In this document: in pieces, positions 2,701-63,136 of the stretch
Position numbering within the stretch: position 1 is the stretch's first letter
How the letters are laid out: each line of letters begins with the position of its first letter
Assembly (NCBI GenBank): GCA_026397915.1
Contig: JAPLTX010000061.1
Span: 94,731-158,730, forward strand
Direction: 5' to 3'
Origin: Verrucomicrobiota bacterium
Lineage (GTDB): Bacteria > Verrucomicrobiota > Verrucomicrobiia > CAIQCK01
DNA length: 64,000 nt
Translations under genes and position numbers: made by a program
Notes under the pieces: model-generated
Database searches by the model: none
Seen by the model: the letters and a program-made list of their open reading frames with translations, nothing else
Told to the model about the DNA's origin: nothing

Positions 2701-3987
2701 CTATGCCGCGCCGCCCAGCTTCGTGAGGATGGTCACCAACGGCAGGAACAACGCCACAACAATGACGCCAACCACCACGGCCAGGAACACGATCAGCATC
2801 GGTTCCAACAGCGAGGTGATACCGGCGACGGCGTTGTCCACTTCCTCGTCGTAGTTGTCGGCGATCTTCATCAGCATCTCCGGCAACGCGCCGGTTTCCT
2901 CGCCAACGTCAATCATCGAGACCACCATCGGCGGAAACACCTTGCTGGCCTCCAACGGCCGCACCACCGATTCGCCCTCCTTCACCGAGTCGTGCACCCG
3001 CTGCACGGCGTCGGCGATGACGCGGTTGCCGGAAGTTTCCTTCACGATCATGAGTCCTTGCAGGATCGGCACGCCGCTGGAGATGAGCGTGCCGAGCGTC
3101 CGCGTGAACCGCGAAATGCCGACCTTGCGGATCATCGGGCCGAAGGCGGGCATGTTGAGTTTGAAGTTGTCCCAGAGCCTGGTGATCGCCGGCACCTTCT
3201 TGATCAGGAAGTTGAACAGCACCACGAACAGCACCACGCCGCCACCGACCACCAGCACGTTTTCGCGAATCAGCTTGCTGGTATTCATCACGGCTTGGGT
3301 CAGCGGCGGCAACGGTGCGCCTTCGAGCAGGTCTCTGAAGATGTCCTGGAACTTCGGCACGATGTAGGTCATCAGGAAGAACAGGATCGAGATGGCAATG
3401 GTGAGCACGACGATCGGATAGACCGACGCCGCGAGGACTTTGCCGCGAATCTTCTGCGCCTTCTCGGCGAACTCCGCCAACCGCGTCAGCACGACTTCGA
3501 GCACGCCGCCCGCTTCGCCGGCGCGGATCATGTTGATATAGAGCCGGTCAAACACCCGCGGGTGGTGCTGCATTGCCTCGGACATCGTCGAGCCGCCTTC
3601 GACCGCCTCGGCCAGCGCGGTGATGGTCTTCTTGAGGGCGGCATTGCGTTCCTGGCGCTCCAGTGTGCGCAACGCGCGCAGCAACGGCAGGCCGGCGTCA
3701 ATGAGCGTCGCCAGTTGGCGCGTGAAAATGGTGAGGAGCTTCTTGTTCACCCGGTCCGTAATGCCGGGGATGTTGATCTCCATCTGCTGCCAGCCACCCT
3801 TTTTGCCGCCCGCCGCGCTCGCCGCCTTGGACTTGCGGCCTTTGCCGGAGCCGGCCTCGGTGATCTTGGTGGGGAAATACCCCATCTCCTTGAGCTTGTT
3901 AATCGCGCCGGCGGGACTGTCTGACTCCATCTCGCCAGAAGTCTCTTTGCCGCGGGCATCTACTGCGGTGTATTCATACTTGGGCAT
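2701..3987 (-). CDS. gspF: type II secretion system protein F / type IV pilus assembly protein PilC
   Basis: 428 aa, two GspF repeats with three TM segments, strong family resemblance across full length. Confidence 0.9.
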   Translation of the reverse strand: MPKYEYTAVDARGKETSGEMESDSPAGAINKLKEMGYFPTKITEAGSGKGRKSKAASAAGGKKGGWQQMEINIPGITDRVNKKLLTIFTRQLATLIDAGLPLLRALRTLERQERNAALKKTITALAEAVEGGSTMSEAMQHHPRVFDRLYINMIRAGEAGGVLEVVLTRLAEFAEKAQKIRGKVLAASVYPIVVLTIAISILFFLMTYIVPKFQDIFRDLLEGAPLPPLTQAVMNTSKLIRENVLVVGGGVVLFVVLFNFLIKKVPAITRLWDNFKLNMPAFGPMIRKVGISRFTRTLGTLISSGVPILQGLMIVKETSGNRVIADAVQRVHDSVKEGESVVRPLEASKVFPPMVVSMIDVGEETGALPEMLMKIADNYDEEVDNAVAGITSLLEPMLIVFLAVVVGVIVVALFLPLVTILTKLGGAA

Positions 3988-4173
3988 GGCAGCTCTCCGG
4001 TTTGTCTGTTTCGGCTCTACTGAATTAGGTCACTTCATCTCGTGGAACTCACCATCAAAGTTCAAGAAAAGTGGAGTAATGGGTGGTGGAGTATTGGAGT
4101 GCTGGGTTGGACGGCCGGTTTCTGTTCGCTACTCCATCACTCCAAGACTCCATTACTCCACCGCTCCGGAGCC
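3988..4173. repeat. intergenic hairpin element built from GGAGTNNTGGAGT / ACTCCANNACTCC octamer repeats (gspE-gspF spacer)
   Basis: family also at 57081-57140, 57981-58020, 62731-62815 (host) and 19725, 25101, 27991, 30681, 41361 (prophage). Confidence 0.7.
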
Positions 4174-5877
4174 TTACGTGTATTTCACGACTTCCTCGAG
4201 CGAGGTTTCGCCATCGAGAATGCGCCGGATGCCATCCTGGCGCATGGTGCGCATGCCAAGCTCCATGGCCTTGTCCCTGAGGACCATGCCGGCCACGCGC
4301 TCGTTGATGAGGGTGCGAATGGGGTCGGACACGCGCAGCAGTTCGCAGATGACGGTGCGGCCTTTGTAGCCGCTGTCGTTGCACTCGGAGCAACCCTTGC
4401 CGAAGAAGAACGTCTTGCCCACCACTTCGGACGGTTTGAGACCGAGGAGGTTCAGGTCTTGTTCGGTCGGCTCGTAGGCGGTCCGGCAGTTCTTGCAAAT
4501 CTTGCGCACCAACCGCTGGCCGAGCACCGCTTCGAGCGTGGAACTGACCAGGAACGGTTCGACACCCATGTCAAGCAGACGGGTGACAGCGCCGGAGGAA
4601 TCGTTGGTGTGCAGCGTCGAGAAAACCAGATGGCCGGTCAGCGATGATTGGATGGCAATCTGCGCCGTCTCCAAGTCGCGCATCTCGCCCACCAGGATGA
4701 TGTCGGGGTCCTGGCGCAAAAAGGCGCGCAATGCCTTGCCGAACGTCAGCCCGACGGCTGGGTTGATCGGCACCTGCATGATGCCTTCGATTTCGTATTC
4801 GACAGGATCCTCGGCAGTGAGCAGTTTGGAATCAATGGTGTTGATGCGACCGAGGCAGGAGTAAAGCGTCGTGGTCTTGCCGGAACCGGTCGGGCCGGTG
4901 ACGATAAAGATGCCGTTGGGCCGTTCGATGATTCCGCAGACTTCGTCAAAGATGGCCTTGGGCATGCCGAGCGTGGCGAGGTCGAGGTTGACGACGGAGC
5001 GGTCGAGCACGCGAAGCACTACGCTTTCGCCAAACTGCGTCGGCAGCGTCGAGACACGGAGGTCCACCGGCCGGCCGGCGATGGACATCTGGATGCGGCC
5101 GTCCTGCGGGATACGCCGCTCAGCGATGTTGAGGTTGGCCATGACCTTGATGCGGCTGGTCACGGGTAACGCCAGATGCTTCGGCGGCGGCGCCATTTCG
5201 TAAAGCGCGCCGTCCACGCGGTAGCGAATCTTGAACATCTCCTCGAACGGCTCGAAGTGGATGTCGCTCGCGCGGTCGCGGATGGCTTGGAAGAGAACGA
5301 GGTTCACGAAGCGGATGACCGGCGCCTCGCCGGCCATCGCCGCGATGTTCTCCACCGTCATGATATCGGGCGCGGCCACCTCCGTGAGGTTCGTCAGGCC
5401 TTCGATTTGCGAGATGAGGTCGTCCACCGACTCAGACCCCTCATCACCGTAGAGTTGCTTGACCATCGCCCCGATCTCGTCGGGATCGGCAACCACGAGA
5501 TGGATGTCGCGGTCCAGGACGAAGCGCAGTTCCTCGACAATGCCGGCATTGAGCGGGTCACTGACGGCGATGTGAAGTGTGTTGCCTTCGAGCTTGATCG
5601 GGATGGCGCAGTAAGCGCGCGCCTGCGCCGGCGGGATGAGTTTCAGCGTCTCTTTGGACAGTTCCTGGTCCTTGATGCTGATCAACTCGGTGCCGAGGTG
5701 TTGCGCGACGACGCTGAGAATCTGCTCGCGCGTCAGCACATCCATATCCATGAGGACTTCGGCAATACCTTTACCGCCACGCGCACTTTCGGCCTCGATC
5801 TCGGCCAACTGCTCGGCGGGCAGCAGTTGATGTGCCTTCAGGATGCCCAGCAAAACGTTGGATTCAGCTTCAAACAT
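4174..5877 (-). CDS. gspE: type II secretion/type IV pilus ATPase GspE/PilB family
   Basis: T2SSE N-domain, Walker [11 protein letters not shown], Asp box, His box, tetracysteine CxxC...CxxC zinc motif. Confidence 0.9.
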   Translation of the reverse strand: MFEAESNVLLGILKAHQLLPAEQLAEIEAESARGGKGIAEVLMDMDVLTREQILSVVAQHLGTELISIKDQELSKETLKLIPPAQARAYCAIPIKLEGNTLHIAVSDPLNAGIVEELRFVLDRDIHLVVADPDEIGAMVKQLYGDEGSESVDDLISQIEGLTNLTEVAAPDIMTVENIAAMAGEAPVIRFVNLVLFQAIRDRASDIHFEPFEEMFKIRYRVDGALYEMAPPPKHLALPVTSRIKVMANLNIAERRIPQDGRIQMSIAGRPVDLRVSTLPTQFGESVVLRVLDRSVVNLDLATLGMPKAIFDEVCGIIERPNGIFIVTGPTGSGKTTTLYSCLGRINTIDSKLLTAEDPVEYEIEGIMQVPINPAVGLTFGKALRAFLRQDPDIILVGEMRDLETAQIAIQSSLTGHLVFSTLHTNDSSGAVTRLLDMGVEPFLVSSTLEAVLGQRLVRKICKNCRTAYEPTEQDLNLLGLKPSEVVGKTFFFGKGCSECNDSGYKGRTVICELLRVSDPIRTLINERVAGMVLRDKAMELGMRTMRQDGIRRILDGETSLEEVVKYT

Positions 5878-16638: not shown

Positions 16639-17937
16639 TCAGGTTGGCTGTTGAGGATTCGCGGCCGCTCCGGGTGTTTCCCCACCGGGGCCGACGGCAA
16701 CTACACGCATCCAGGCTTGCGTCCATTCGAGCGGCAAACCGTTCCAGGCTTCCGTAGCGCCTGGCGTCACACCCGTTCCCCACGGCGTGTAATTCACTCC
16801 GTCTGTTGATTGCTCGGCGTTCAAAGATGTCGCCCCCGCGGAAAGCGAAGGCCACGTTACATCCATCCGCCAACTGTCCGGCGGGTCGCCAACAAGCGCG
16901 AGGTTGGTAATCGTTGGCGCATCGGGTGCCGATGGCGGCGGCGCTGTGGACGTTGGCGTTGGCGTCGGTGGCGGGGCCGTTGGGGTTGGTGTGGCCGATG
17001 GACTCGTTGGGGTTGGCGTTGCCGATGGACTCGTTGGGGTTGGCGTGGCCGATGGACTCGTTGGGGTTGGCGTGGCCGATGGACTCGTTGGCGTTGCCGA
17101 TGGACTCGTTGGGGTTGGTGTGACCGGCGGGGCCGTTGGGGTCGGCGAGGGGACTGTCGGTGTGGCGGTTGTGGTCGGTGTGGGCGTGGCATCAACAATG
17201 GTCATGCTCTCGGATTGTTGGACGTGATTGTTGTTCGCGTCGTAGAGGTGCGCGGTCCAAGAGTAAGCCCATGTGGGGCCGGGGCCGGCCGGGCGGGTTG
17301 GCGTGCCGGTGATGGAGCCGTTAAGATTGAAGCTCAGACCTGGAGGCAGCGGGCCGGCGTCCATCATCCACGTGTAGGGTTCCGTTCCGCCCGTGCCGGT
17401 GTGCTGGAGCGACACGGGATTGCCAACGGTTTGGTTGGGCCAGACACCGCCGTTCGTGATCGCGAGTTGGCCGCCGCTGGAAGGCGTGGGCGGCGAGGAA
17501 GGCGTGGCCGTTGGCGATCCACCGCCGCCACCGCCACCGGTCCCCGTCGGGGTTGGGGTTGCGGAGGGTGAGGCCGTTGCGGTTGACGATCCGCCGCCAC
17601 CGCCCGTCCCTGTCGCGGTCGGGGTTGCTGAAGCCGAGGCCGTTGGCGAGGCCGACGCGGTCGGTGTTGCTGTTGGCGCGGCGATGATGCGAACGCCCTC
17701 CGGTTGTTTGATGGTGTTGCCCTCGGCGTCCGTGGCGCGAATCCACCACTGGAAACGGCCCGCGACGGTCGGCGTGCCAGAGAGCACGCCAAGAAGGCTC
17801 AGTGTCAAGCCGGGCGGAAGCGAGCCATAGATTTTCTGCCACGCGTAAAGCGGCTGACCGCCCGTGGCGGCGTGGCTGAATGAATACGCGGCCCCGACGT
17901 TGCCGTCGGGCAGATGGTGTTTGGATGTGATGCGCAT
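16639..17937 (-). CDS. phage tail fiber-like protein with He_PIG (putative Ig) domains and PT-rich linkers
   Basis: LPDGNVGAAYSF...PPGLTLS...GTPT motif repeated; long PTPTSPSATPTPT linker encoded by 27-bp tandem repeats. Confidence 0.5.
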   Translation of the reverse strand: MRITSKHHLPDGNVGAAYSFSHAATGGQPLYAWQKIYGSLPPGLTLSLLGVLSGTPTVAGRFQWWIRATDAEGNTIKQPEGVRIIAAPTATPTASASPTASASATPTATGTGGGGGSSTATASPSATPTPTGTGGGGGGGSPTATPSSPPTPSSGGQLAITNGGVWPNQTVGNPVSLQHTGTGGTEPYTWMMDAGPLPPGLSFNLNGSITGTPTRPAGPGPTWAYSWTAHLYDANNNHVQQSESMTIVDATPTPTTTATPTVPSPTPTAPPVTPTPTSPSATPTSPSATPTPTSPSATPTPTSPSATPTPTSPSATPTPTAPPPTPTPTSTAPPPSAPDAPTITNLALVGDPPDSWRMDVTWPSLSAGATSLNAEQSTDGVNYTPWGTGVTPGATEAWNGLPLEWTQAWMRVVAVGPGGETPGAAANPQQPT

Positions 17938-17958: not shown

Positions 17959-19055
17959 TTAAGGCGCGGTCGGTGTCGGCGTCGGCGGTGGGGCCGTTGG
18001 GGTTGGGGTTGCCGACGGACTCGTCGGGGTTGGTGTGACCGACGGACTCGTCGGGGTCGGTGTGGCCGACGGACTCGTCGGGGTTGGCGTGGCCGACGGA
18101 CTCGTCGGGGTCGGCGTGGCCGACGGACTCGTCGGGGTCGGCGAGGGGACCGTCGGTGTGGCGGTTGCGGTTGGTGTGGGCGGCAGCGCGGCGAGCACGA
18201 CCATGCCAACGGGATCGTCGGCGTGGTTGCCCTCGGCGTCGGTGGCGCGAACCCACCAGGTGAAATGGCCGGTGGTCGTCGGCGTGCCGGCGAGCGTGCC
18301 GTCGCTGTTGAGCGCGAGGCCCGGCGGCAGCGAGCCGGAAAGCAGCGACCAGGTGTAGGGCGCGACGCCGTCCACGACCGCGAACGCGAAGCTGTAGGCG
18401 GAGCCGACGTTGCCATCGGGCAGGTAGAAGTCGGACGTGACGCGGAAGCCGGTGCCAGTCGTTGGCGTGGGCGTGGGCGTTGGCGTCGGTGTGGCGGTGG
18501 CCGTCGGGGTCGGCGTTGGCGTGGCGGTCGCGGTCGGTGTCGGCCCTGTGCTTGTGGGCGTCGGCGTCGGGATAAATTGAACCGTGCCGAAATCGGTTGT
18601 CTCGTCGAAGCCGGCGGCAAAGACGGTCACATCTTCCTTGAGCCAGGTCTCGATGCGGCCGTCGGGCCGCTTCGCGCCGAACATGACGGTGGACGGCCTT
18701 GACTCCAAGCCCAGGAGCCACTCGGCGGAGACGGCCTCCGGGAACTTGAGGACGCATTCGAGCTTGCCGCCGCGTTTGATGAAGTCGTTTTTGAACGCGA
18801 CAAAGCCCGGATCGTCGAGCGTGCCGGTGGGGACGCCCTCGCCCGCGATGACGCCGACGACGAACTTGTAGCCCGCAACGTTGCGGTAGATGAACTTGTT
18901 GCCGGTCGTCAACGGGTTGGGCGAGAGCGGATGGATGCGCCACTCGACGGCGCTACCCTGAAAGAACTCGATGCGGTCGTAGGTTGGCTCGGCGTCGTCG
19001 TTGATGCCGGTGACGCGCTTGCCGGTGGCGGTGTTGAGATAGATGTCACGCATAG
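17959..19055 (-). CDS. phage tail fiber protein with He_PIG Ig-like domains and PT-rich linkers
   Basis: start MRDIYLNTATGKR chosen inside ORF 17959..19611; YLPDGNVGSAYSFAFAVVDGVAPYTWSLLSGSLPPGL motif; paralogous to 16639..17937. Confidence 0.5.
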
Positions 19056-19711
19056 AGGTAACTGTCCAATCCGAGGAGGTTGCTGTTGGCGTCGAGGAAC
19101 AAGAGCGTGCGGCGGCGCACGTCCTGGCCGGTCCACGCAAGGTGCCGGTCCACGGGCGCGATTTCGTGGCAGAGGTGCCAGTAGGGGGCGACGACGCGGA
19201 GATGCTGGCGGACGACGTTGCGGGGCGTGAAGACGTAAACGTCCTCGCCGCGCTCCTGGCTGAGCGTGGCGCTGTAGGCGGCGGTGATGTAACCGATGTA
19301 GAGAAAGCCCTTGAGCGTGGACGGCCAGTTGCCCTGGCTTGGGAACCACGGCCAGCCGGCGTCGGCAGGCGTCGGGCCGTCCTTGAGAAGCGCGGACACT
19401 GGCAGCACGCCGAAGTCGCCGCCGAGCTGCAGGAGCACCTCGGCCCAGACGTGATGGACGATGTTACCCTGCACCGGCACGGTGACAACGGCGTGCAACG
19501 GCTGTTCGCTCTCGCTGTCGTTGGAGGGCTTGATGTCCTTCGTGGCGTCGAGTGTTTCGCCAACGGCGATGTAGCCACGGCGCACGGCGAAGGCGGCCTG
19601 ATTGTTCGCAAGCGTCACGCCGTCGGGCGCGCTGCCGGGGACGATCTTCCAGGGGAAGCTCCACTCAAGCCTGTTGAGGCGGCAGCCCTCGGTGTCGTAG
19701 CGTCCGCTCAT
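19046..19711 (-). CDS. phage tail/baseplate-associated protein (hypothetical)
   Basis: 221 aa, located between tail tip genes and fibers; no recognisable motif. Confidence 0.3.
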   Translation of the reverse strand: MSGRYDTEGCRLNRLEWSFPWKIVPGSAPDGVTLANNQAAFAVRRGYIAVGETLDATKDIKPSNDSESEQPLHAVVTVPVQGNIVHHVWAEVLLQLGGDFGVLPVSALLKDGPTPADAGWPWFPSQGNWPSTLKGFLYIGYITAAYSATLSQERGEDVYVFTPRNVVRQHLRVVAPYWHLCHEIAPVDRHLAWTGQDVRRRTLLFLDANSNLLGLDSYLYA

Positions 19712-20088
19712 TGGGGGGAAACCTCGGTAGAGTGTTGGAGCGGTGGAGTATTGGAGTGATGGAGCGGCCAGCCCTTGCCTTGCGAGCGCGCTGGATGTTT
19801 ACAGCCCCAGCGCGGAAGATTCTCTTCGTAGCCGGAAAGGTTGCGGATGGAGCCGCCGCCGTTGACGCGGCAGCCGCAGAGAACGCAGGACACATTCCCG
19901 TTGAGCGTGAGCCGGTATTCACACACGGCGCAGACAGCCTCGCGCGCTTGCCGAACATCGGCCGGCACGTGGCGGGCGGTCAGCCATGCCTGCGTGAACG
20001 ACGCGGCCATGCCGATCATCTTGCGGAGCGGGCGAAGCGTCGCGGGCGGCGCGGCGGGCGGGGCGTTGGTGTCGTCAATGATGATCAT
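19708..20088 (-). CDS. small cysteine-rich phage protein (CAVCEY...CVLCGC zinc-ribbon-like)
   Basis: start MIIIDDTNAPP overlaps stop of upstream gene (ATGA-type coupling); 7 Cys. Confidence 0.3.
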   Translation of the reverse strand: MIIIDDTNAPPAAPPATLRPLRKMIGMAASFTQAWLTARHVPADVRQAREAVCAVCEYRLTLNGNVSCVLCGCRVNGGGSIRNLSGYEENLPRWGCKHPARSQGKGWPLHHSNTPPLQHSTEVSPQ

Positions 20089-25089: not shown

Positions 25090-25126
25090 GATTGTTTCCT
25101 TTGAGTGTTGGAGTGTTGGAGTGGTG

Positions 25127-27103: not shown

Positions 27104-27165
27104 GGTCGTTTCCTTATTGGGGTGTTGAAATAATGGAGTGATGGATGATGGGTTGTGGGTTGCGG

Positions 27166-27984: not shown

Positions 27985-28050
27985 GATTGTGTCCTCGTTG
28001 GAGTGTTGGAGTTGTTGGAGTGGTGGAGTGATGGAGTGATGGAGAGGCGG

Positions 28051-29115
28051 TTACTTGCCGGCCGCGTCGTATTGCTCGCGTGTGATGTTCATCTGCTTGC
28101 AGACGTTCGCGATCACGTCGCTGGACTGGTCACCGGGCGCGCCGACAATGCCCGTGGAGGCAAGCGCCTTGATCTTCTCAGGCGTGCGCTGTTCCATCGG
28201 CACCTGGCCGGCGGCAAGGCTGCCCAGATACTTCTTCCAGCCCGCGAGGTCGAAGTCGTCGGCGCTGAGCGCGATGAGCTTCCCATCGCGGATGGCGAGA
28301 TTGGTCAGGTTCTGCTTCTCGATGCCGTCGAGCCGGTCGCTGACGGGCTTGACCCCGGCGCTGACGGCGGCCGTGATGGCTTCCGCCGAGAGCGGCTTCA
28401 CGGCATCCGCCGCAGTGGCTGGCGCGGCCGGCGCGACGGCCGCGATGCGGTCGGCGGCGGTGGCGGGGGCGACCTTGAGTTTGTCGGCCACCTTGGTGGC
28501 GGCGTCCTGGATTTCCTGGTCGGTCGCCGTGTCGGGCAGGCCGAGGATGATGAGCAGCAGTTTCTTGTGGTCCACGTTGTCTCCTGTGTTGGTGTTGTTG
28601 GTTGGTTCGGCGAGCGCGGCGGAAAGCACCGCCGAGAGGGGGAGCGTGATGCCGTCCACTTCGCCGTGGCGGCAGAGCGCAAACGAATGGACGAACGTCA
28701 CCGTGCCATCGGGCGCGGTGGCAACGGCGGCGGACACGTCGGGGTAGTCGGCCTTGTATTCCTCAGCGATGGGATTCCACTCGATGGAGCAGGCAAAGAG
28801 GCCCTCGCCCGCTACGACTTCGGGCGTCCAACGGCGCGCGGAAAGATGGCACGGCTCACCTTTGTAAAATTGTGTGCCTTCGACGGTCTGGTGTTGGAGG
28901 TCGCCGTGTGGCCGGGGGCGCTTGGCGCGCAACTGGTTCTTCGGCAGCAGCGCCATCGTGGATTCGTTGACCTTGAGATTGCCAAACCGGGTGTCGTTGT
29001 CGCCCCAGTGGAGGAGCTTGAGGCGCGTAGGCAGCGGCTTGGTGAGGTCGAGTTTCTCAACGGCTCCGAGCAGCGTCAGTTGGTTCTTGCCTTGCACGAC
29101 GCGAGTCCAACACAA
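28051..29115 (-). CDS. Mu protein I-like head maturation protease/scaffold
   Basis: 354 aa, position between G-like and T-like genes; N-terminal domain consistent with Mu-like prophage I family. Confidence 0.45.
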   Translation of the reverse strand: MCWTRVVQGKNQLTLLGAVEKLDLTKPLPTRLKLLHWGDNDTRFGNLKVNESTMALLPKNQLRAKRPRPHGDLQHQTVEGTQFYKGEPCHLSARRWTPEVVAGEGLFACSIEWNPIAEEYKADYPDVSAAVATAPDGTVTFVHSFALCRHGEVDGITLPLSAVLSAALAEPTNNTNTGDNVDHKKLLLIILGLPDTATDQEIQDAATKVADKLKVAPATAADRIAAVAPAAPATAADAVKPLSAEAITAAVSAGVKPVSDRLDGIEKQNLTNLAIRDGKLIALSADDFDLAGWKKYLGSLAAGQVPMEQRTPEKIKALASTGIVGAPGDQSSDVIANVCKQMNITREQYDAAGK

Positions 29116-29186: not shown

Positions 29187-29230
29187 AGCTGAAAGCTGAG
29201 AGCTGAGAGCTGAGAGCTGAGAGCTGAGGG
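29187..29230. repeat. tandem heptamer array (AGCTGAR)n in G-I intergenic region
   Basis: agctgaaagctgagagctgagagctgagagctgagagctgag; one of 8 such arrays confined to the prophage. Confidence 0.8.
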
Positions 29231-30674: not shown

Positions 30675-30702
30675 GGGAAAATGGAGTGTTGGAGTGGTGG
30701 AG

Positions 30703-31149
30703 TTATGGAGTGGCGGCGTCGGCCTGATCCAGCTTGCTGGTCTTGATGCGAAAGTTCAGTTCCCTCGCGACCGCCACGGCGCGGACGATGTAGTCGGGCA
30801 CGTTGGCCGCGTGCAGCGCGCCGAGCATCGTCGCCAGTTCGTTCTCCACGTGCGGCAGGTTGGAACACGCCTCTTCGCGCTTCATGCCGTCGCCAGCGAG
30901 GTAGCGGAGCAGATACTTTTGCAGCGCGTGCTCGTAGATGTCCAAGTCCGCGTGCCGAGCCAGCGGCAGCGCGCCAACCGGGGACGGCGCTTTCATCACA
31001 TCCGTGTGCGGCGGCCTCACGGGCGGCCCTTCCGGCCCGTCGGTGATGGCTTGCAGCGCGGCGGACATTTTATTTCTAAAACCTTCACCCCGACACAGCT
31101 GACAGTTGGCGTCGTTGCAGTATGTTTGATGATCGGAAATCAGTCTCAC
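30703..31149 (-). CDS. hypothetical Cys-containing phage protein (GTG start overlapping rSAM stop)
   Basis: 148 aa; CNDANCQLC motif; GTGA overlap with upstream stop. Confidence 0.3.
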   Translation of the reverse strand: MRLISDHQTYCNDANCQLCRGEGFRNKMSAALQAITDGPEGPPVRPPHTDVMKAPSPVGALPLARHADLDIYEHALQKYLLRYLAGDGMKREEACSNLPHVENELATMLGALHAANVPDYIVRAVAVARELNFRIKTSKLDQADAATP

Positions 31150-32178: not shown

Positions 32179-32677
32179 CGCGCCAGTTCCAGTCCCCCAT
32201 CCGCTCTGCGGTAGGTTCCCGCCGCGAGGCGCTGGCCGGCGGCGATGATCTCGGCCATGCGGCGCTCGAACCGCTCGTCGTCGAGCTTCCGCTGCCACTC
32301 GCGGCGCGTGAGGATCGTCACCGGCATCCATCGCCAGCCGAATCGCTTTGCCTCTTCGTGTGTCGCGAAGAGCAGGTCGAGGCGGTTTGCGCCTTTGATG
32401 TCTCGGCCGGTGTCGTCGGCGCGGTTCCAACGGCCGTTGACGTGGACCATCGAGCCGAGCGGGATGCGGCGAGGGTCCACGGCCACGATCTGGCCGACCG
32501 CCTGCCGCCCCGTGGCCGTGAGGCCGCAGGCATTCGGCCCGCAGCAGATTCGGCACGGGCAATAGGCGGTGACGCGGACCCAGCGGGTCGAGGCGGCGAG
32601 GGCGGGAGATGGGAGATGGCAGATGGCAGATAGGAGGAGCAGGGCAGTCCCCAACTTCCAGCTTCCAACTCCCATCT
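32175..32677 (-). CDS. secreted 3D-domain (MltA/RlpA-like) cell-wall hydrolase, candidate endolysin
   Basis: 167 aa from MGVGSWKL...ALA/AS signal peptide; VRVTAYCPCRICCGPNACGLTATG...GSMVHVNGRWNRADDTG 3D domain. Confidence 0.55.
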
Positions 32678-32692
32678 GCTTCGTTCTCCTCC

Positions 32693-33154
32693 TCACAGCG
32701 CCTCCTGGTAGATTTCCAGATTGGTTTTCCTGACCGTGTGGCTGCCGATCTGCACGTCCACCTTGGTCTGCCAGAACTCCATGTCCTTGCAGCGGTCGCG
32801 GTGGTCGAAATAGCTCTGGAGGCTGAAGTCGTAGTTGCGCGGGCCGACTTGCGAGCCGTCCACAAAGCCGGCGCGGATCAGCCGCACCAGCGTCTTGTAG
32901 TTCACACCCAGGCCGAGTTGCGCGGGGAGCTTGACGGTGAGCCGGAGGTTGCGCGAGTGGATGCGCACGACGGGCCGGTAGGTGCCGTCGCCCGCCGGCT
33001 GCAAATCGTGCAGGCCGACGCGCGGCGCCTGGCCGGCCGGGCACTCGACAACGAACTGCCCCGGCGCGACCTCGACCGTCAACGGCGCGGGGCCGTTCAG
33101 GACGGACACAAGCGAGTGCGGAGTGCGGAGTGCGGATTGCGGAAGAGGTTTCAT
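32693..33154 (-). CDS. hypothetical phage protein
   Basis: 153 aa ORF with ATG start. Confidence 0.3.
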   Translation of the reverse strand: MKPLPQSALRTPHSLVSVLNGPAPLTVEVAPGQFVVECPAGQAPRVGLHDLQPAGDGTYRPVVRIHSRNLRLTVKLPAQLGLGVNYKTLVRLIRAGFVDGSQVGPRNYDFSLQSYFDHRDRCKDMEFWQTKVDVQIGSHTVRKTNLEIYQEAL

Positions 33155-33159
33155 GGCAG

Positions 33160-33567
33160 TCAGAGGTTCAACAGCTTTTGTTCGCGGAGGGCGTTGGCCT
33201 TCGCGGCGGCGAAGAGTCCGCGCGCCTCGAAGTCGGAGCAGGCGCGATAGACGCCGCCGGCGGAAGCGGCGGGAGTTGGGAGATGGGAGTTGGGAGTTAG
33301 GGCCGGAGATTCCACCCTCCCATCTGCCAACTCCGATCTGCCATCTGCTTTACCCACGAGCACCACGAAGCCGAGTTGGTAGAGTTCCGTGACGCGGGGG
33401 CGCATGTCCACGAGAAACAGCGGGTTGTTGGGCCGCATCTTCACCGCCAGTTCCTTCGTCGTGCAAGGGCCGTGGACTTTGAGCGCCTCCAGAACTTCGA
33501 GGCGCAGGTCCACAAGGTATTTGGCCTTGAGGCTGGCGAAGGTTTCGTTCCTAAAATCAACGGGCTT
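33160..33567 (-). CDS. hypothetical phage DNA-binding protein (winged-helix-like N-domain); C-terminus reads through a tandem repeat
   Basis: MKPVDFRNETFASLKAKYLVDLRLEVLEALKVHGPCTTKELAV. Confidence 0.3.
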   Translation of the reverse strand, partial: KPVDFRNETFASLKAKYLVDLRLEVLEALKVHGPCTTKELAVKMRPNNPLFLVDMRPRVTELYQLGFVVLVGKADGRSELADGRVESPALTPNSHLPTPAASAGGVYRACSDFEARGLFAAAKANALREQKLLNL

Positions 33568-33771: not shown

Positions 33772-34344
33772 TCAGAACGGGATGTCGGCGGTTAGGGCTG
33801 CCGGCTGAGGGCTGAAAGCTGAAGGCTGAGAGCTGACAGCTTTGCGCCGATTCCTCACCGTGTAAACGAGACACCAGACCTGACGCTCGGTTGCCTCGGC
33901 CAGGCTGCACTTGAACTGCCTGCGGCAGATGGCGGCGGCGTAGCTCTCGTGCAGGCCGCGCTCGCGGAGGGACTCGCGCAGCTTGAACATCGCCAGCCGG
34001 ATCGGCTCGGTCGCCACGCGTTCCTCCGCGCGCCGCGCCGCCGCGGCGTTGCCTTTGAGCATAAGGAACCGGCCCTCGATGAGTTTGTATTCGCGCTGTG
34101 TCGCGCCACGCAAAGACGTGTAGCCGCACGCAAACATTTGCTGGGTGTGCCGCCAGTCGTCCAACTCGCCCTGGCTGGCGGCGGGCCGGCCATAGACCTC
34201 CTCGAACGCCTCGCGCGCTAGGATGCAGAGGTGCGCCTTCTGGCCGTTCTCGAGAGGCGCGCTGGGCGACGGCACGGGCCGTCCGCTGCCGTGGCGAAAC
34301 ACGGCGCGGAAGTCGTCGCTCATGATGTCGGCGGGGATGATCAT
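33772..34344 (-). CDS. GemA-like (Mu gp16 family) regulatory protein, tentative
   Basis: 190 aa; KAHLCILAREA...DDWRHTQQMFACGYTSLRGATQREYKLIEG pattern resembles Mu GemA family. Confidence 0.3.
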   Translation of the reverse strand: MIIPADIMSDDFRAVFRHGSGRPVPSPSAPLENGQKAHLCILAREAFEEVYGRPAASQGELDDWRHTQQMFACGYTSLRGATQREYKLIEGRFLMLKGNAAAARRAEERVATEPIRLAMFKLRESLRERGLHESYAAAICRRQFKCSLAEATERQVWCLVYTVRNRRKAVSSQPSAFSPQPAALTADIPF

Positions 34345-34375
34345 ATTGAAGCTCCCAGCTTTCAGCTCTCAGCTT

Positions 34376-34630
34376 TCAGTTCTCATTTGCGGGAGTGATG
34401 GAGTGTTGGAGCGATGCTTGTTCCAACGCGCGCGCAATTCTATCCACCGCGTCGGTTACAAGGTCGTGATATGAAGCCTGCCTTCCCGCCAAGGGAACAA
34501 CGCAAGTCTTTGAGACCCCGCCTCCGGCGTTGGTGATGGCCACGTAGATTACAACTCCGTTTTCTTCTAACGCCGTCTTCGCCAGCTCCTGGCCAAGGTT
34601 GAAGCAAGTGTTTATATACACAGCCTTCAT
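34376..34630 (-). CDS. small hypothetical phage protein
   Basis: 84 aa from MKAVYINTCFNLGQ; ATGA coupling to upstream gene. Confidence 0.25.
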   Translation of the reverse strand: MKAVYINTCFNLGQELAKTALEENGVVIYVAITNAGGGVSKTCVVPLAGRQASYHDLVTDAVDRIARALEQASLQHSITPANEN

Positions 34631-35529: not shown

Positions 35530-35928
35530 TCAGGTTTGGGAGTTGGGAGTTGGCAGATGGGAGTTGGATGGGGCCGGGGCGGTTGTTTGCAGTTGGGAGA
35601 TTTCGCTCGCGTAGCGCGTCTGGTAGCGGTGCAACATGCCGAACGCCCCGGCGAGACGTTGGCGGGCTTGCTCCAGTTGCAGCAGCTCGTCTTCTTCCAG
35701 GAGCGTGCCGACGGCGTCGGACTCGTAGAGGCGCTCCTCGATGAGGAGAGCAGCGGCCACCATTTTCGCGGCGGCGGCCGTGGCGCGGTCCTGCGGCAGC
35801 GGGGAGCGGGGGGCGGGCGGAACGGGCGGGCAGGAGAAGTTCCAAAGCCGGATGAACAGCTTTGCCATCAGCACTCCACCAGCCACCGCGCACACGGCCA
35901 ACAAGATAGATGCAATCCAAGGGTTCAT
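35530..35928 (-). CDS. hypothetical phage membrane protein
   Basis: 132 aa; N-terminal TM; start within repeated RBS-start cassette. Confidence 0.25.
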   Translation of the reverse strand: MNPWIASILLAVCAVAGGVLMAKLFIRLWNFSCPPVPPAPRSPLPQDRATAAAAKMVAAALLIEERLYESDAVGTLLEEDELLQLEQARQRLAGAFGMLHRYQTRYASEISQLQTTAPAPSNSHLPTPNSQT

Positions 35929-37888: not shown

Positions 37889-39880
37889 TCAGGTTTCGAT
37901 CAGGTCACCGCGGGCGCGGGCTTCGGCCTCGCGTTTGGCGATGTAATCGGCCGCGGCAGTGCGGTCGAAAGAGACGCGGGAAACGGCCGGGGCCGTTCCT
38001 CGCGTTGAAAATGTGGCCGGCTCGGTATCGGTGTCTCTCGCGTTTGCGGCGGACTCGCCGAGCCGGCTCACCGTGTCGTGGTGTGTAAGTGGAGATTGGA
38101 GTTTGGAGATGGCGACGCGGCTGACGTTGCCCCGGCCGTCGCTGTCGAGGTGGACAACGGCGGCGCGTCCGGTGCTCTCGATGGCCGCGAAGCTCGAGCG
38201 CACCTGGGCGGTGCGGAGCTTGCGCGCGGCGGTGGCCGGCGAACGGTAACCCTCGCAATCAACGAACTGCGGCCCGTCGGCACTCCAGGGAGCGATGCCG
38301 ATGAACTGGAACCGCTTCCAGTTCTCGCGATTCATCGGGCGCGTTTCGTTATTGAAGAGCGCACAGCCGGCCTCCGGCGCGAGCGGGTCGAACCGCGCGA
38401 TGACGCGGTGGCCGCGCTCGATGAACGGAAAAGCCGCCGTCGCCACGTGGAACCGAAACGGGCGCGCATAAGGCGCAACGGAAACCTGCACATGGCCCGC
38501 GAGTTTGGTGCCGACGCCGACCTCGCTGATGGTCGGCTTGAAAAACCAGAACTCCTCCTCGCTCACCGCCGGCAGCGATCCGCCGCGCGCGGCCATGTCG
38601 CGCTCCCACGTCACGTCGGGAGCTTCCGCTTTGAGGCCGTCAACCTTGCGCGCCCGCTTGTTCAGGAACTGGCAGCCGGCGACAAGCTTTTGGATCAGCA
38701 CCTCGCCCCACGGAATGAAGCCGCACTTGGCCGGATCGGCCTTGCCCTTGTTCACGGCCATCATGTCATCGGTAGGCTGCTCGTATTCGCCGCGCGTCTT
38801 GCCGATGCGCACGCCATGCACGCCCATGATCTTGTGGAACGGCCGAAACGAGGACTCGATGCCGCCCTTGGCGTTGGAGGAGAAAACGTGGTCCACGGGG
38901 ATGACGCTGGCGATGCCGCCCCAGCGGTTGCCGGCGTCGTCAATCTGAATACCGTCGAGCGCGTTGTTTTCCCAGCGACCGCGTTCGTCGCGGAAACGGC
39001 CAAACCGCCCCCAGCGCCGCGTGAGAAGTTCCTTGAACCGCGCGATGTCCTCGGCGCGGTAGCTGTCCGCAAAGCGCGCGATGGGATAGACGCCGAGCCA
39101 CTTGCCGCTGCGCACGTCGCGCGCCATCAGGATTTGACGCCCCACGCGCCAGTAGCCGTCCGGGTCCATCCAGAAAAACGGAACGTCGGTTGACACGTCG
39201 TCAAACTCGATGATGTCCCCGCTGTTCACAGGCACCCATGCGCCGTGGTCGTCGTAACCGTAAAAGCCGCGGCGCACGCTGAAGACGATGCTCCGCAGCG
39301 CGTCGCGGCTGCGCGCCGCTGCCATTTCCTCCTGCGTCACGCGCACGTCGCGCATGATGCTTTGCGGGTATCGGCCCGTCAGCCGGTTCGCGGCGAGGGC
39401 CTCGCGGACCTCCGGCCGGCACACCGGCGAGTCGGCCATCAACTCGATGCCCATTGGCACGCTCTCGGTCTTTAGGACAAACGTGCGGGCGAGCTTCTTC
39501 TCTGCGTCGTTGAGGTTCACTTTTTTCTTTCGCCCGCAGTTCTTGTATTGCCGGCCGAGCTTTTCCTCGCCGCCGGCATCGAGCAGCCGCGCGTAGCGCA
39601 ACAGCGTGCAGTGCGGCTTGCCGAGTATCCGAGCCGCCTCCGCCGCGCTCGACGCCATCGGCGGCTGGCCGTTCTCTCCGGGCTTTTGCAGCGCGCGCCA
39701 CTCGCGCACGAGCGACGCGCGGCGTTGCTTCCAGGCGTTGTCCAAGGACTGCGGAGTCGGAACCGCCGCCGCGGCGTCGCTGGAAACAATCGCGCCCGGA
39801 GGTCGCGATCCACCTGTAGCGGCGGTCTCTGACCGCCGATCCGGCGCGGGCGAGGAGTTCGCCCCCGCGCAGTGTTGCAT
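37889..39880 (-). CDS. Mu-type DDE transposase (MuA-like)
   Basis: ORF 37889..40132; central rve/DDE core (SGDIIEFDDV..., ...VIPVDHVF...), N-terminal HTH; start uncertain (39880 or 39658); ~590-664 aa. Confidence 0.75.
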   Translation of the reverse strand: MQHCAGANSSPAPDRRSETAATGGSRPPGAIVSSDAAAAVPTPQSLDNAWKQRRASLVREWRALQKPGENGQPPMASSAAEAARILGKPHCTLLRYARLLDAGGEEKLGRQYKNCGRKKKVNLNDAEKKLARTFVLKTESVPMGIELMADSPVCRPEVREALAANRLTGRYPQSIMRDVRVTQEEMAAARSRDALRSIVFSVRRGFYGYDDHGAWVPVNSGDIIEFDDVSTDVPFFWMDPDGYWRVGRQILMARDVRSGKWLGVYPIARFADSYRAEDIARFKELLTRRWGRFGRFRDERGRWENNALDGIQIDDAGNRWGGIASVIPVDHVFSSNAKGGIESSFRPFHKIMGVHGVRIGKTRGEYEQPTDDMMAVNKGKADPAKCGFIPWGEVLIQKLVAGCQFLNKRARKVDGLKAEAPDVTWERDMAARGGSLPAVSEEEFWFFKPTISEVGVGTKLAGHVQVSVAPYARPFRFHVATAAFPFIERGHRVIARFDPLAPEAGCALFNNETRPMNRENWKRFQFIGIAPWSADGPQFVDCEGYRSPATAARKLRTAQVRSSFAAIESTGRAAVVHLDSDGRGNVSRVAISKLQSPLTHHDTVSRLGESAANARDTDTEPATFSTRGTAPAVSRVSFDRTAAADYIAKREAEARARGDLIET

Positions 39881-40150
39881 GAAGCCAATAACCGAGGCCG
39901 GCAGACGATCTCCATCTGCGCCATGCTGCGCGCTGCCGAATCGGCGGTCAGAGACTGCCGCTGCAGAAAGCTGAGAGCTGAAAGTTGAAAGCTGAGGACT
40001 GCGATCTCCCGCCGCAACGTCGGGGCGCGTTGCGGCGGGCGGGGGTTGGTTCTGGCCTGTGAACGGCGCGGGCACAATCGCCCCGGTCAACTCCGCGCCG
40101 CTCCGCGTCTTGTTGGTTATAGAATCGTGCATGGCCAGATGGCGGGAACG

Positions 40151-41265: not shown

Positions 41266-41342
41266 GTTCTTCTTTCCTTTTGGGGTTGGTTGTTGGCAGT
41301 GACTGCGGCAAAAGTTGAGAGCTGAAAGCTGAAAGCTGAGGG

Positions 41343-41558
41343 TTAAGAGTTGGGGGCGGGGTTGGTTGGAGTGTTGGAGTTGTGGAGTGATGGAGTGTTG
41401 GCGGCCTCTCCAAACCATTCGCATCCGCAGCCGGCCTCGCGGCACTCGCGCTCGAAGCAATCGTGCTTGTAGCGGTCGTGGCCGCAGACGCAGGGGCGAA
41501 GCAGCGCGGCGCTGCCGGGAGGAAGATGGTCGGCGATGATTTGAAACCCCGTCTTCAT
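41343..41558 (-). CDS. small Cys/His-rich hypothetical protein
   Basis: PCVCGHDRYKHDCFERECREAGCGCEW; uncertain. Confidence 0.2.
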   Translation of the reverse strand: MKTGFQIIADHLPPGSAALLRPCVCGHDRYKHDCFERECREAGCGCEWFGEAANTPSLHNSNTPTNPAPNS

Positions 41559-42025
41559 GGTTGCTCCGGTAGGGCGCGACCGCTGGGCGCGCCGAGGGGG
41601 TCGGATCGGCCGGCCCAGCGGTCCGTCCCTACCGCCGCCGCGCTCGTTTCCACGATGAGACTCCACAGCCGGTCCACGATCTGGCGCGTTTCGGTCCAGC
41701 GCGTGGCGGCGGCGTTGTGCGCGAGGGCCAGCGCCTCCAGCTCGCCGCCGATGTGCTCCAGACCGTCATCGCGCTCGATGCGCTCCAGTAGCGCGCGCAG
41801 CCCGCCCCATCGGCCCTGCATCTCGCGGCACTCGCTGATCAGGCGCTTCAGTTCGATCTGGCGAGGGGAAAGGGCCGTCAAGGCTGAGGGCTGAGGGCTG
41901 AAGGCTGAAGGCTGAAGGCCGACCGATGAGGGCTGAAGGCTGAGGGCTGAAGGCTGAAGGCCGACCGATGAGGGCTGAAGGCTGAGGGCTAAAGGCTGAC
42001 CACTGATCGCTGGCTTGGTGTTCAT
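41555..42025 (-). CDS. hypothetical protein whose N-terminal region is encoded by heptamer tandem repeats
   Basis: ATG overlaps upstream stop (ATGA); LQPSSVG repeats from 7-nt DNA repeat; C-terminal helical region. Confidence 0.2.
   Translation of the reverse strand: MNTKPAISGQPLALSLQPSSVGLQPSALSLQPSSVGLQPSAFSPQPSALTALSPRQIELKRLISECREMQGRWGGLRALLERIERDDGLEHIGGELEALALAHNAAATRWTETRQIVDRLWSLIVETSAAAVGTDRWAGRSDPLGAPSGRALPEQP
41878..42000. repeat. long tandem heptamer array (GGCTGAR)n with 54-nt higher-order duplication
   Basis: ggctgagggctgaaggctgaaggccgaccgatgag unit repeated twice. Confidence 0.8.
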
Positions 42026-44334: not shown

Positions 44335-44769
44335 ATGTTTACGGCAGCCATCAGCTCTCAGCTCTCAGCTCTCAGCCTTCCACTCCTTACCGCCGCGCCG
44401 ATCACACTCGATAACTCCACCGTCGTCACCGTCGGCATGATCGTGGCCGTGGCGGCGATGGTGAAGTGGGCGACGGACATCTGGGCCAACATCCGGCCCA
44501 ACCGCTCCTTTGACGACAAGCTGGTGGCGGCGCTGACGGCGTGCCAGGGGCAGTGCTCTAAAAATCTCAAGGTGGCCACCGACGACATCGAGGTGATCCA
44601 GGCCGACCGCCGTCGCAACACGACGGACCTCTGGAAGGAAATCAACGGCCTGAAGGAAACGATCCAGACGTTCTCGAACGACTTGAACCGCGCGCTGGGC
44701 CGGCTGGAGGGGCGGGCGGAAATGCTCGACGCGGTGCGCGACGTGATCGCGAAGAAAACGAAAGACTAA
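44335..44769 (+). CDS. membrane protein, holin-like candidate
   Basis: 144 aa with TM segment VVTVGMIVAVAAMVKW; upstream late-promoter-like motif. Confidence 0.3.
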   Translation: MFTAAISSQLSALSLPLLTAAPITLDNSTVVTVGMIVAVAAMVKWATDIWANIRPNRSFDDKLVAALTACQGQCSKNLKVATDDIEVIQADRRRNTTDLWKEINGLKETIQTFSNDLNRALGRLEGRAEMLDAVRDVIAKKTKD

Positions 44770-46058: not shown

Positions 46059-46270
46059 GCGCGACCCGACATTTACCGGCGCGGCGGGCGCTCCGCCGAC
46101 TGGCGGCGGCGTCGGCGCAGATGCTCGGCGGGGACGTGGCCGTGTGCCTGACAGTGGCCGGGCCGAAGGGCGCGCGCGTGGAGCGTTACCTGTGCAGCGC
46201 GGTGGACGCGATGGCGCTGGCGACGATGCTGCAACTGGCGGTGGCGCGGGCCGCGAAGGCTGAGAGCTGA
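46055..46270 (+). CDS. small hypothetical protein
   Basis: 71 aa; ATGA overlap with upstream stop. Confidence 0.2.
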   Translation: MSATRHLPARRALRRLAAASAQMLGGDVAVCLTVAGPKGARVERYLCSAVDAMALATMLQLAVARAAKAES

Positions 46271-46296
46271 AAGCTGAAAGCTGAAAGCTGAAAGCT
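46257..46296. repeat. tandem heptamer array (AGCTGAA)n upstream of terS
   Basis: gctgagagctgaaagctgaaagctgaaagctgaaagct. Confidence 0.8.
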
Positions 46297-56497: not shown

Positions 56498-57287
56498 CGC
56501 CTCCACCGACGTGCGCCTTGCCTCCGCCGCGGCCCCACCCGGCCATTCCGCGGACCTCCGCGGCGACGGCGCGACACACCGCGCCCTTCCCACACAACAC
56601 CCCGGAACCAGCGCGGCACAGCGCGGGCTTTCCGCGACACTCCCCCGCTTCTCCGTGGAACTCCGCAGGTTGACCGAGACACTCGCAGGAACAACCGCGG
56701 CATCGGGGCAAGCACCGCCCCACATCAACCTCCATACCTGTGCGTGCCGCCGGCTCTCCGAGTGGCCATATCTCGTCACCGCAGACTGTCGCGGCGGCGT
56801 CTCGAAGGATCGCGGTGCCGCCGCAGAGCATCCCGGAGCCTCCGGGGAAGCCCCCGGCGTGACCGCGGAGTGTATCGCCGGCGGCGTGGCACTCATTGGC
56901 GCATCCGCGTAGCGCATTGGAGACTCCGACGAAGCGGGGCGTGTATTACCCCGATGCAGAACACACGTGTTTGTGGGAAAACACGAAGGTTTTGTTTCTC
57001 CTGCTCTGCCAATGCGAAACTTCAGAGCGCATTACCGTTTCCGCGCCTGCTTATCCCCCATTGCCTACAGAGCAGCGTGGAGTAATGGAGTCGTGCGGCA
57101 GGCCAATCCAATACTCCAGCACTCCAGCACTCCACTCCGCCATGCCCTTGCCGCTCTCCATCGTCGCGATGTCGGGACGGTAGAGCGACAGCGCGCTCTT
57201 GCGCGTTGCCAGGTAAAAACCTGTGTTGAGCCACACGGAAGAACGAACGGATGCGCAGCGGCTCAATACACGGGCGCGCAAATCGTT

Positions 57288-57833: not shown

Positions 57834-58085
57834 GTGGATGTGCGGTTAGTGGTTGGAGCGCTGCTGGCTCCGTAGTTTATTCGATTCGTGGGGCGAAACT
57901 AGGCCGTCACCACGCGATGCGCAAGGGCCAGCCTCTCCCTCAGTCTCCCCCCGCCTGCTTCTCCGCCATCGCCGTCAGAGCAGAATGGAGTATTGGAGCA
58001 ATGGAGTTGTGGAGTTGTGACCCCGGACTCTTGAGAACAGTCTGGTTGGGTTGCGTTTGCTCTTTTCGTAGGGAATTATTTTGGT

Positions 58086-62637: not shown

Positions 62638-63136
62638 TGTAGGCAGCCGCCACCGATGGGCAAGCGCAAAAACCCACGCGAACCACTTCCGCTTCGTCTC
62701 ATTTCCGACCGTCGCCTTCGGAGCAGCAACGGAGCAGTGGAGTGATGGAGTCGTGCGTCAGGCAAACCCATTACTCCATTACTCCATTACTCCGCTTCTC
62801 CACCACTCCATTCCGCACCGCTCTCGCCGCTCTCCATCGTCGCGATGTCGGGACGACAGAACGACAGCGCGCTCTTGCGGCCGACGGTGATGATGTTGTC
62901 TGTTAACGAAAGCCGTGAAGTCGTCGGTAGTTGACCCGCCATGTCAAGAATCAGGAGTTGACCCGACTCCAACACTCCACCAGAATGCTGGACATGAAGT
63001 CCGGCGTGCCGGTTTGGATTGGCTCGGTGGCGATCACATGGGTGACCGGCTACGAACGATGCTGGACGCGGCGCTGCGGGGGAAAAGCAAGGGAGACGGA
63101 ATGCTACGCCTCTTCTCCAATCAGACGGGAGAAGAT

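Follow-up and report, generated by a model that had tools for sequence, protein, structure and literature searches.

Tandem GGAGT-core octamers in a verrucomicrobial host and its Mu-like prophage: inverted pairs predicted to form hairpins and single arms predicted to remain unfolded as leaders

A family of tandem octamers recurs along a 64,000-nucleotide stretch of contig JAPLTX010000061.1 (positions 94,731 to 158,730 of the forward strand) from a Verrucomicrobiota bacterium, assembly GCA_026397915.1, and this whole stretch is hereafter termed the window. The 8-nt unit reads TGGAGTRN on one strand and NYACTCCA on the other, and its grammar can be written as GGAGT + R + N + T. Near the left end, the spacer 3988-4173 separates two minus-strand genes, which encode a T2SS-E/PilB-type ATPase (4174-5877; PF00437, E 2e-134) and a T2SS-F/PilC-type protein (2701-3987). 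A Mu-like prophage, with its genes on the minus strand, occupies approximately 16-42 kb and encodes Mu F, Mu protease I, the gpT major head protein, Gp36, Gam, AAA_22 B-like and ParB-like proteins. All octamer array copies are located between protein-coding genes and none of them in a 23S rRNA helix, the window being devoid of rRNA; taken over all repeats, the arrays are mostly intergenic, with exceptions at 19737-19765, 33114-33143 and 45246-45272, which fall in N- or C-terminal codons of open reading frames (ORFs).

The abundance of the octamer is far above chance, since 36 matches to GGAGTNNTGGAGT with at most one mismatch were counted in the 64 kb against 0.60 expected from 100 dinucleotide shuffles (sd 0.8, maximum 4). 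Identical octamer arrays, with 2-6 copies per arm, were recovered independently by TRF, which also disclosed heptamer families co-occurring in the window, and the octamer family announced in a preliminary description of this DNA is thus real. The pentamers themselves are not enriched (74 and 69 occurrences of GGAGT/ACTCC versus ~75 predicted by composition), and the signal therefore resides in their clustering at the 8-nt phase. Many further 7- and 8-mer families are present in the same window. A search of Rfam over the whole window returned no family at the gathering score, and a permissive search gave sub-threshold matches only, to generic long-hairpin (pre-miRNA-like) models.

Outside the prophage, the octamer arrays and the features attached to them are as follows.
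4060..4170, minus strand: octamer hairpin in the spacer between the PilB-type and PilC-type genes (minimum free energy (MFE) -51.1 kcal/mol, z -4.9, for the region 4050-4175).
4064..4071, minus strand: U-rich tract CUUUUCUU directly 3' of the hairpin, of which the T-run is kept in the relatives L268 and L269.
57079..57138, no strand assigned: octamer hairpin with the G arm at 57079-57091 and the C arm at 57105-57138.
57987..58015, minus strand: single array, ACUCC on the minus strand, ~150 nt upstream of the minus-strand gene 57288-57833.
62731..62809, no strand assigned: octamer hairpin with the G arm at 62731-62751 and the C arm at 62773-62809.
62966..62978, plus strand: two-unit ACTCC array just before a plus-strand ORF, filling the spacer of a TTGACC-17-CAGAAT match.

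In the sense of the mRNA, the 4060-4170 element opens with four GGAGU units, passes through a loop of ~30 nt into three ACUCC units and ends in CUUUUCUU, and the Shine-Dalgarno (SD) motif and ATG of pilC lie 77 nt past this tract. The two distal hairpins are also backed by their folding energies, which amount to -27.7 and -35.2 kcal/mol on the two strands for the region 57070-57145 and to -37.2 and -40.5 kcal/mol (z -6.3 and -5.1) for the region 62725-62815. The hairpin at 57079-57138 sits within a repeat of ~165 nt that recurs at 62692-62879, and the hairpin at 62731-62809 is found in a divergent region upstream of a gene for 1118 aa (start 62637). The preliminary description had placed long hairpins at four sites, and three of them (4060-4170, 57079-57138 and 62731-62809) stand by folding energy, whereas 57981-58020 was rejected as a hairpin (z +1.5 and +1.1) and is a single arm. 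Its first hairpin had been placed between gspE and gspF, where the position is correct but the names are not, the genes being PilB/PilC-type members of the T2SS-E/F families. A terminator scan did not call the pilB-pilC hairpin; the scan scores loops of at most 8 nt, and the loop of this hairpin is longer.

The surroundings of these arrays show some regularities of their own. The larger repeat, ~165-190 nt long with 82-85% identity between copies (57107-57203 and 62783-62879), holds the 57-kb and 62-kb hairpins and contains GCCGCTCTCCATCGTCGCGATGTCGGGACG. A repeated box beginning with CGCCTGCTTCTCCACCATCGCCTTCA is found at 55171-55253, 55996-56078, 57041-57069, 57949-57977 and 62692-62720; its minus-strand end is a conserved mini-ORF that encodes MVEKQAKKKP* or MVEKQARKKV*, and three of its copies directly adjoin octamer arrays. 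The box was unmatched in any fetched locus, and the flanks of the 57-kb and 62-kb hairpins (the D1/D2 boxes) were, beyond the arrays themselves, likewise unmatched in all fetched loci. The promoter-like TTGACC-17-CAGAAT match occupies 62958-62986 with a start codon a few nucleotides downstream, and a transcript from it could be nearly leaderless. TTGACA occurs upstream of arrays in some phage contigs. A general role of the arrays as promoters was rejected, since most are without a -35/-10-like context and the -10 matches are poor.

Inside the prophage, the octamer occurs as single arms, which are listed below.
19737..19765, minus strand: array before a gene for 221 aa (start 19711), overlapping the 3' codons of the called ORF 19708-20088.
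25102..25122, minus strand: array of 2-3 units before a gene for 128 aa (start 25089).
27104..27165, minus strand: spacer ahead of the Mu gpT major head gene (start 27103), G-free and with a degenerate octamer pattern.
28000..28045, minus strand: six-unit array filling the 66-nt spacer between Mu protease I (28051-29097) and a scaffold-like gene (start 27984).
30683..30711, minus strand: four-unit array before the Mu F-like gene (start 30674), MFE 0 kcal/mol.
34392..34412, minus strand: array ~50 nt before a gene for 190 aa (start 34344), followed by a second repeat family, GCTGARAG.
41368..41396, minus strand: four-unit array ~100 nt before the ParB-like gene (probable start 41265).

All octamer arrays of the prophage carry GGAGT on the plus strand and therefore appear as ACUCC in the mRNA. 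They precede the starts 19711, 25089, 27984, 30674, 34344 and 41265, and the distance from array to start is 5-50 nt in six of seven cases, the array at 41368 being ~100 nt away. Such single C-strand arrays cannot fold because they contain no G, and they are predicted to be unfolded (0 to -3.3 kcal/mol); within a context of 200 nt on either side, their pairing probability is 0.12-0.43, compared with 0.54-0.66 in the flanks. The six-unit array at 28000-28045, after which GAGGA and the ATG follow, is exemplary in this respect (MFE -2.3 kcal/mol; pairing probability 0.20 versus 0.59 in the flanks). The leader at 30683-30711 is free of an SD motif and harbors the stop codon of the upstream ORF inside the array. 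Moreover, all intercistronic spacers of at least 30 nt in the late operon are G-poor, according to the gene calls from L267, an independent assembly that is 100% identical to the window, with no unit-number polymorphism between the two. Sequestration of the SD by the C arm was considered and rejected, since ACUCC has no complementarity to GAGG or AGGA, the SD motifs found after the arrays. The proposal that single arms lie immediately 5' of prophage genes is upheld for most of them, in the ACUCC sense, though not for 41368-41396, given its distance from the probable start. The array reported at 19725 does precede the start 19711, and it extends into the final codons of a called upstream ORF, 19708-20088.

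Comparison with relatives disclosed both persistence and absence of arrays. In the host relative L268, of which PilC is 96% identical, the pilB-pilC hairpin is degenerate but present, its loop CAGAAACCG and the T-run are unchanged, and the remaining spacer is ~93% identical; in the 92% relative L269, the same spacer has a different GC-rich sequence and then the T-run. A stem with a U tract therefore seems to be kept while the sequence of the stem turns over fast. In addition, 15-21 kb of syntenic DNA in three host relatives is free of arrays, and hence turnover is fast. The closest prophage relative compared at the DNA level, L273, has a scaffold-like protein that is 52% identical, and its homologous protease-to-scaffold spacer carries an ACTCC array followed by GAGGA, reading ...ACTCCATCACTCCAACACTCCAATAGAGGACAAACACT-ATG. 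A degenerate version with CACTCCC/AACTCCC motifs occupies the homologous spacer in L271 (48% identity), and prophage relatives at 30-40% identity have G-poor, C-rich and mostly SD-less leaders without the octamer period. The prophage leaders are therefore not recent random insertions, and the comparison with prophage relatives that had been called for comes out in favor of the leader proposal; together with position, strand and predicted lack of folding, the array in L273 supports the view that the prophage copies are 5' leader or intercistronic elements. The further suggestion of a long co-residence of phage and host is not supported, since the octamer is common in unrelated phage contigs and the close host relatives (96% and 92% in PilC) are array-free in the syntenic regions. 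Some Verrucomicrobia are reported to be SD-scarce (PMC10783764).

The distribution of the family was surveyed with the pattern GGAGTNNTGGAGTNNTGGAGT in 596 Gb of sequence, one genome being taken per species; a pattern of 17 specified bases should turn up ~70 times by chance in that volume, and the counts were therefore confined to extended arrays and pairs. These are plentiful, among the matches listed, in Verrucomicrobiota, Desulfobacterota and Syntrophobacteria, Binatia, Planctomycetota, Bacteroidota and Calothrix, where metagenome-assembled genomes (MAGs; L037, L047 and L052) bear GGAGTGAT arrays beside classic heptamer arrays. A scan of viral contigs yielded 54 loci, mostly of ~60% G+C, and in numerous of them a C-sense array stands directly before an ATG, in L135 and L160 without any SD motif. 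In GC-rich loci, a coding-like ORF begins within 60 nt after a C-sense array in 24 cases, versus 5 for G-sense arrays. The pairs obey a clear topology, the G arm coming first in 63 and the C arm in 9, on either strand, and their loops are mostly 15-60 nt, with a second group of ~380-600 nt. The GGAGT core (5-6 nt) is constant across phyla, and the spacer bases vary; the R:Y restriction at the first spacer position still permits RNA pairing at most positions, and the asymmetry of A/G versus U/C between the arms was too weak to reveal a strand preference. Beside these regularities, five viral loci (L131, L150, L161, L163 and L170) share an arrangement of TTTGACACCTCC, an ACTCC array and ACCC-ATG ahead of a signal-peptide protein (MKHLLRL...), in which the CACCTCC string is identical, not complementary, to the 3' tail of 16S rRNA. 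In L116, a contig binned as Metamycoplasmataceae, (GGAGTGTT)n arrays extend over kilobases together with CTTAGGT repeats; they resemble a satellite or contaminant more than an intergenic array of a bacterium, and the contig was left out of the counts.

An all-against-all comparison of the ORFs in the pattern-hit loci uncovered a gene associated with the arms. In five loci from three phyla (L028, L035, L056, L060 and L081), a small protein is encoded exactly between the G arm and the C arm, and it belongs to PF05635, the 23S rRNA-intervening sequence protein family of four-helix bundles; the arm-enclosed genes come from Desulfobacterota, Verrucomicrobiota (Udaeobacter) and Bacteroidota. In the reverse test, 80 metagenome loci encoding relatives of this protein (L187-L266) were collected, of which 68 had enough flanking sequence. 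At least two GGAGT units were present within 120 nt upstream in 61 of the 68, and at least two ACTCC units within 150 nt downstream in every one (68/68), both arms being carried by 61/68, compared with only 6 and 2 loci for the opposite orientations. The start codon of the PF05635 gene lies within the last, degenerate G-arm unit, and its stop codon abuts the C arm. The Udaeobacter-type subfamily comprises 1950 clusters, and each of the 25 proteins fetched (25/25) has a tail encoded by the C arm, for instance TTPSLQHSITPSLRAHA; among the proteins examined (P0038-P0157), tails such as TPSLQHSITP occur, and some proteins start with the G-arm-encoded MECWSSGVM. The cassettes reside in 27-30 distinct genomic contexts, and in 19 of 27 the C arm is followed, at a distance of no more than 80 nt, by the start of a co-oriented ORF. 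Such bracketed PF05635 genes look like a cassette of the intervening-sequence (IVS) type outside rRNA. Within the window, the ORF 30703-31149, with a weak tblastn match near 30870-30975, was considered as a PF05635 gene and was rejected by Pfam and hhalign.

Several known systems resemble this family in part. The closest likeness is to the short tandemly repeated repetitive (STRR) sequences of heterocystous cyanobacteria, which are likewise tandem intergenic units of 7-8 nt with several families per genome, and of which inverted arrays fold into hairpins in the gaps between co-transcribed genes, hupS-hupL for instance; a role in transcript stability or translational coupling has been proposed (PMC2670836). 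These hairpins between cyanobacterial genes are known, though unexplained (PMC2670836). The octamer family differs in its 8-nt unit with the GGAGT core, its occurrence in a verrucomicrobial host and a Mu-like prophage, its G-arm-first topology and its link to PF05635, neither of the latter two having been found described for STRR. In the 23S rRNA IVS, an S23p ORF is positioned in the loop of a stem of ~28 bp that is a substrate of RNase III (PMC4990558). Both systems have terminal inverted repeats, with an IVS stem of ~25-30 bp, around a gene for a four-helix bundle, which the octamer arms enclose elsewhere as PF05635. The IVS, however, is inserted in 23S rRNA helices (9, 25 or 45), whereas the octamer copies are in mRNA leaders or intergenic spacers, have stems made of tandem octamers with mismatched spacers, are without an ORF in the window and are putative substrates of RNase III.

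In Geobacter metallireducens, tens of intergenic copies of opposite-strand site pairs, each with 3-5 tandem octa- or heptanucleotides at variable distance, have been described (PMC2700814), but their consensus units are GTTGCTYN, TCTCCGTS and MTYCTGA, they were read as putative IHF/HU DNA sites, and neither a single-arm leader form nor a PF05635 cargo was reported. The hmw leader of Haemophilus influenzae offers an RNase III-processed heptamer-repeat hairpin in a 5' untranslated region, in which a pyrimidine-rich tandem repeat and a G-rich arm form a long hairpin and the RNase III cut sets expression (PMC12721329). That system is a single phase-variable locus with the unit ATCTTTC, whereas the octamer arrays recur in many copies, of which those in the prophage lack a G-rich partner. 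Repetitive extragenic palindromic sequences and bacterial interspersed mosaic elements (REP/BIME) are also multi-copy, extragenic, imperfect palindromes within operons and can stabilize upstream mRNA. The octamer family, in contrast, has no fixed palindrome, no GTAG head, no species restriction and no association with the REP-associated tyrosine transposase (RAYT) in the window, the rest of the MAG not having been searched for RAYT. The octamer family is therefore best filed among STRR-like short tandem repeats rather than among fixed-sequence REP elements or miniature inverted-repeat transposable elements. It appears to be undescribed, as no published account of it or of its PF05635 link was found in a partial coverage of the literature, and a full-text search with the array strings returned unrelated primer sequences only.

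Taken as a whole, the window is read by us as containing one STRR-like family in two configurations, inverted pairs serving as RNA stems and single C arms serving as open leaders, a reading to which we give an even chance. Once transcribed, an inverted pair would form a helix of 25-35 bp composed of blocks of 6-7 bp with mismatches of 1-2 nt between them. As the window holds no PF05635 gene, its three hairpins look like the empty form of the IVS-like stem that encloses such a gene elsewhere. As double-stranded RNA within a transcript, they may offer a processing site of the RNase III type or stabilize a 3' end, with the IVS stem, the STRR hairpins and the hmw hairpin as precedents, and the pilB-pilC stem with its U tract may function as a terminator or attenuator. 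The solo C arms, being G-free, would keep the ribosome-loading region open in a GC-rich and strongly folded polycistronic mRNA, and an open leader of this kind would aid ribosome loading or re-initiation with or without an SD motif. The sequences show the arrays, the rules of their strand and topology, a predicted lack of folding, a conserved position in a relative and the link to PF05635 cassettes; cutting by RNase III, termination and any influence on translation are functions that we infer.

A number of observations weigh against this two-configuration reading or its extension to cassettes. Classical translational enhancers of the S1 type are A/U-rich, and the C-rich leaders are unlike them. 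A U tract follows the pilB-pilC hairpin only, the other hairpins being without one. Close host relatives are without the arrays, so no window copy is essential. In other loci, about half of the solo arrays lie farther than 60 nt from any coding-like ORF, upstream or downstream, and the array of L129 is G-sense relative to the gpT homologue. The spacer bases of paired arms match at 0.52, compared with 0.585 for shuffled partners; one arm is therefore no palindromic copy of the other, and selection for pairing finds no backing in covariation. In addition, no PF05635 gene was detected in the window by hidden Markov model search or tblastn, and shared arm sequence and topology are the sole tie between the window and the cassettes.

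The same observations give shape to the alternatives. The arrays may be neutral or selfish by-products of replication slippage and gene conversion, kept where they are harmless, with hairpins and leaders having no function of their own and polarity arising only from selection against GGAGU arrays in mRNA, which would create SD-like sites and strong folding. Such an origin, which we hold to be unlikely, would account for the perfect arrays in the phage contigs L133, L151 and L167, which reach 20 or more units and point to active slippage, for adjacent units resembling each other more than distant ones, for the numerous other 7- and 8-mer families in the window, for the array-free syntenic regions, for pilB-pilC arms that diverge far faster than the neighboring spacer and for the lack of covariation between arms. 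It is hard to reconcile with an array at the homologous spacer of a prophage relative with a flanking protein only 52% identical, with a GGAGT core that is constant across phyla amid variable spacer bases, with the G-first topology (63 vs 9 pairs) and with arms that fit the PF05635 start and stop codons exactly. A different origin of the constant core and free spacers, which are typical of protein recognition, would be that the arrays are DNA or RNA binding sites of an oligomeric protein, most obviously the pentameric PF05635 protein encoded by the full cassettes, or else a global regulator of the IHF/HU type; the spacing of the subunits would then explain both the 8-nt register and the presence of 3-6 units in each arm. 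The near-obligate linkage of the PF05635 subfamily to the arms points the same way, as do the pentameric toroids formed by S23p/Avd-type proteins (PMC4990558) and the reading of the paired Geobacter sites as regulator sites (PMC2700814). We nevertheless judge it improbable, given a window without a PF05635 gene, a period of 8 bp that is out of phase with the DNA helix and a Coxiella S23p protein that appears not to be made in vivo (PMC4990558).

Two further proposals fare worse. As stretches of 20-50 nt within operons that are unstructured, ~50% C and almost free of G, the arrays would suit Rho-loading (rut-like) sites imposing polarity on prophage operons upon failed translation of the next gene; however, they lie near start codons (5-30 nt), where an initiating ribosome would cover them, and one is kept in the late operon of the phage relative, where polarity would be costly, which makes the Rho proposal very improbable. 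The preliminary description had spoken of a REP-like host family that colonized the prophage, that is, a REP/BIME-type element mobilized by a RAYT transposase, and the extragenic, multi-copy and partly palindromic nature of the copies agrees with this. Yet the element is built of tandem units, with a constant core of 5-6 nt and free spacers no more complementary than shuffled ones, not a fixed palindrome of 20-40 nt; its arms are not copies of each other, no window copy has the conserved GTAG head, the same unit extends across phyla rather than being species- or genus-specific, and the cargo of full-length copies elsewhere is a PF05635 gene, not a Y1 transposase. The REP-like assignment is accordingly not sustained, and we give mobilization by RAYT hardly any credence.

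Within the favored reading of stems and open leaders, a bolder and tentative extension, which we think unlikely to hold in full, would take the TGGAGTRN arrays as the terminal repeats of undescribed, cross-phylum IVS-like cassettes in mRNA leaders. The full form would carry a PF05635 (S23p/Avd-like) gene with its SD and start locked in the stem, the empty form would be the hairpin, and the solo C arm would be a "processed" leader before the downstream ribosome-binding site, used as the standard intercistronic leader in verrucomicrobial phages; the pentameric protein may read the 8-nt register. Three loose ends would meet here, namely the role of STRR, the four-helix-bundle gene in the 23S rRNA IVS and translation in SD-poor, GC-rich lineages such as Verrucomicrobiota. 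If IVS-like cassette stems in mRNA leaders prove true, thousands of "four helix bundle protein" genes from soil and sediment metagenomes would be placed in a defined genetic setting and given an RNA partner open to testing. Solo C arms that do act as leaders would amount to a simple, transferable element, devoid of G, by which the ribosome-loading sites of GC-rich mRNAs could be opened. The arrays also matter to annotation, as they account for the recurrent spurious peptides HSITPSLQ and EYWSNGV and for array-encoded tails of called proteins.

The window also contains heptamer variants, three of which were assigned as features.
32575..32690, minus strand: second heptamer-variant inverted array of the prophage, with weaker fold support (z -1.3).
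33265..33350, minus strand: heptamer-variant hairpin inside the prophage, a GGGAGWU-type arm first and an AWCUCCC-type arm second (-41.9 kcal/mol, z -2.75).
35536..35567, minus strand: heptamer variant AACUCCC (mRNA) before the Mu Gam gene (start 35513).

These 7-mer variants are present as had been claimed, at 32604-32674, 33271-33348 and 35536-35567. The CACTCCG heptamers noted earlier also exist, at 33114-33143 and 45246-45272, but they are located inside ORFs. Read as CCGCACT arrays, these two encode the same peptide, SALRTPHS, one of them after a start codon and the other after a lipoprotein-like LLLTGC motif. Near the repressor-side end of the prophage, a 17-copy heptamer array of AAGGCTG/AGGGCTG occupies 41880-41999, and related AGCTGAG/GAAAGCT heptamer arrays are found at 29187-29228, 33794-33841, 34350-34385, 39966-39995, 41311-41339, 44351-44376 and 46255-46300. 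With regard to the prophage genes, an ORF of 747 aa (37889-40132) stands at the position expected for the Mu transposase A and had no Pfam or PHROG match at the thresholds used. Coding repeats with a period of 27 nt at 16951-17147 and 17995-18143, in minus-strand prophage genes beside a He_PIG Ig-domain protein, probably mark a repetitive tail-fiber region.

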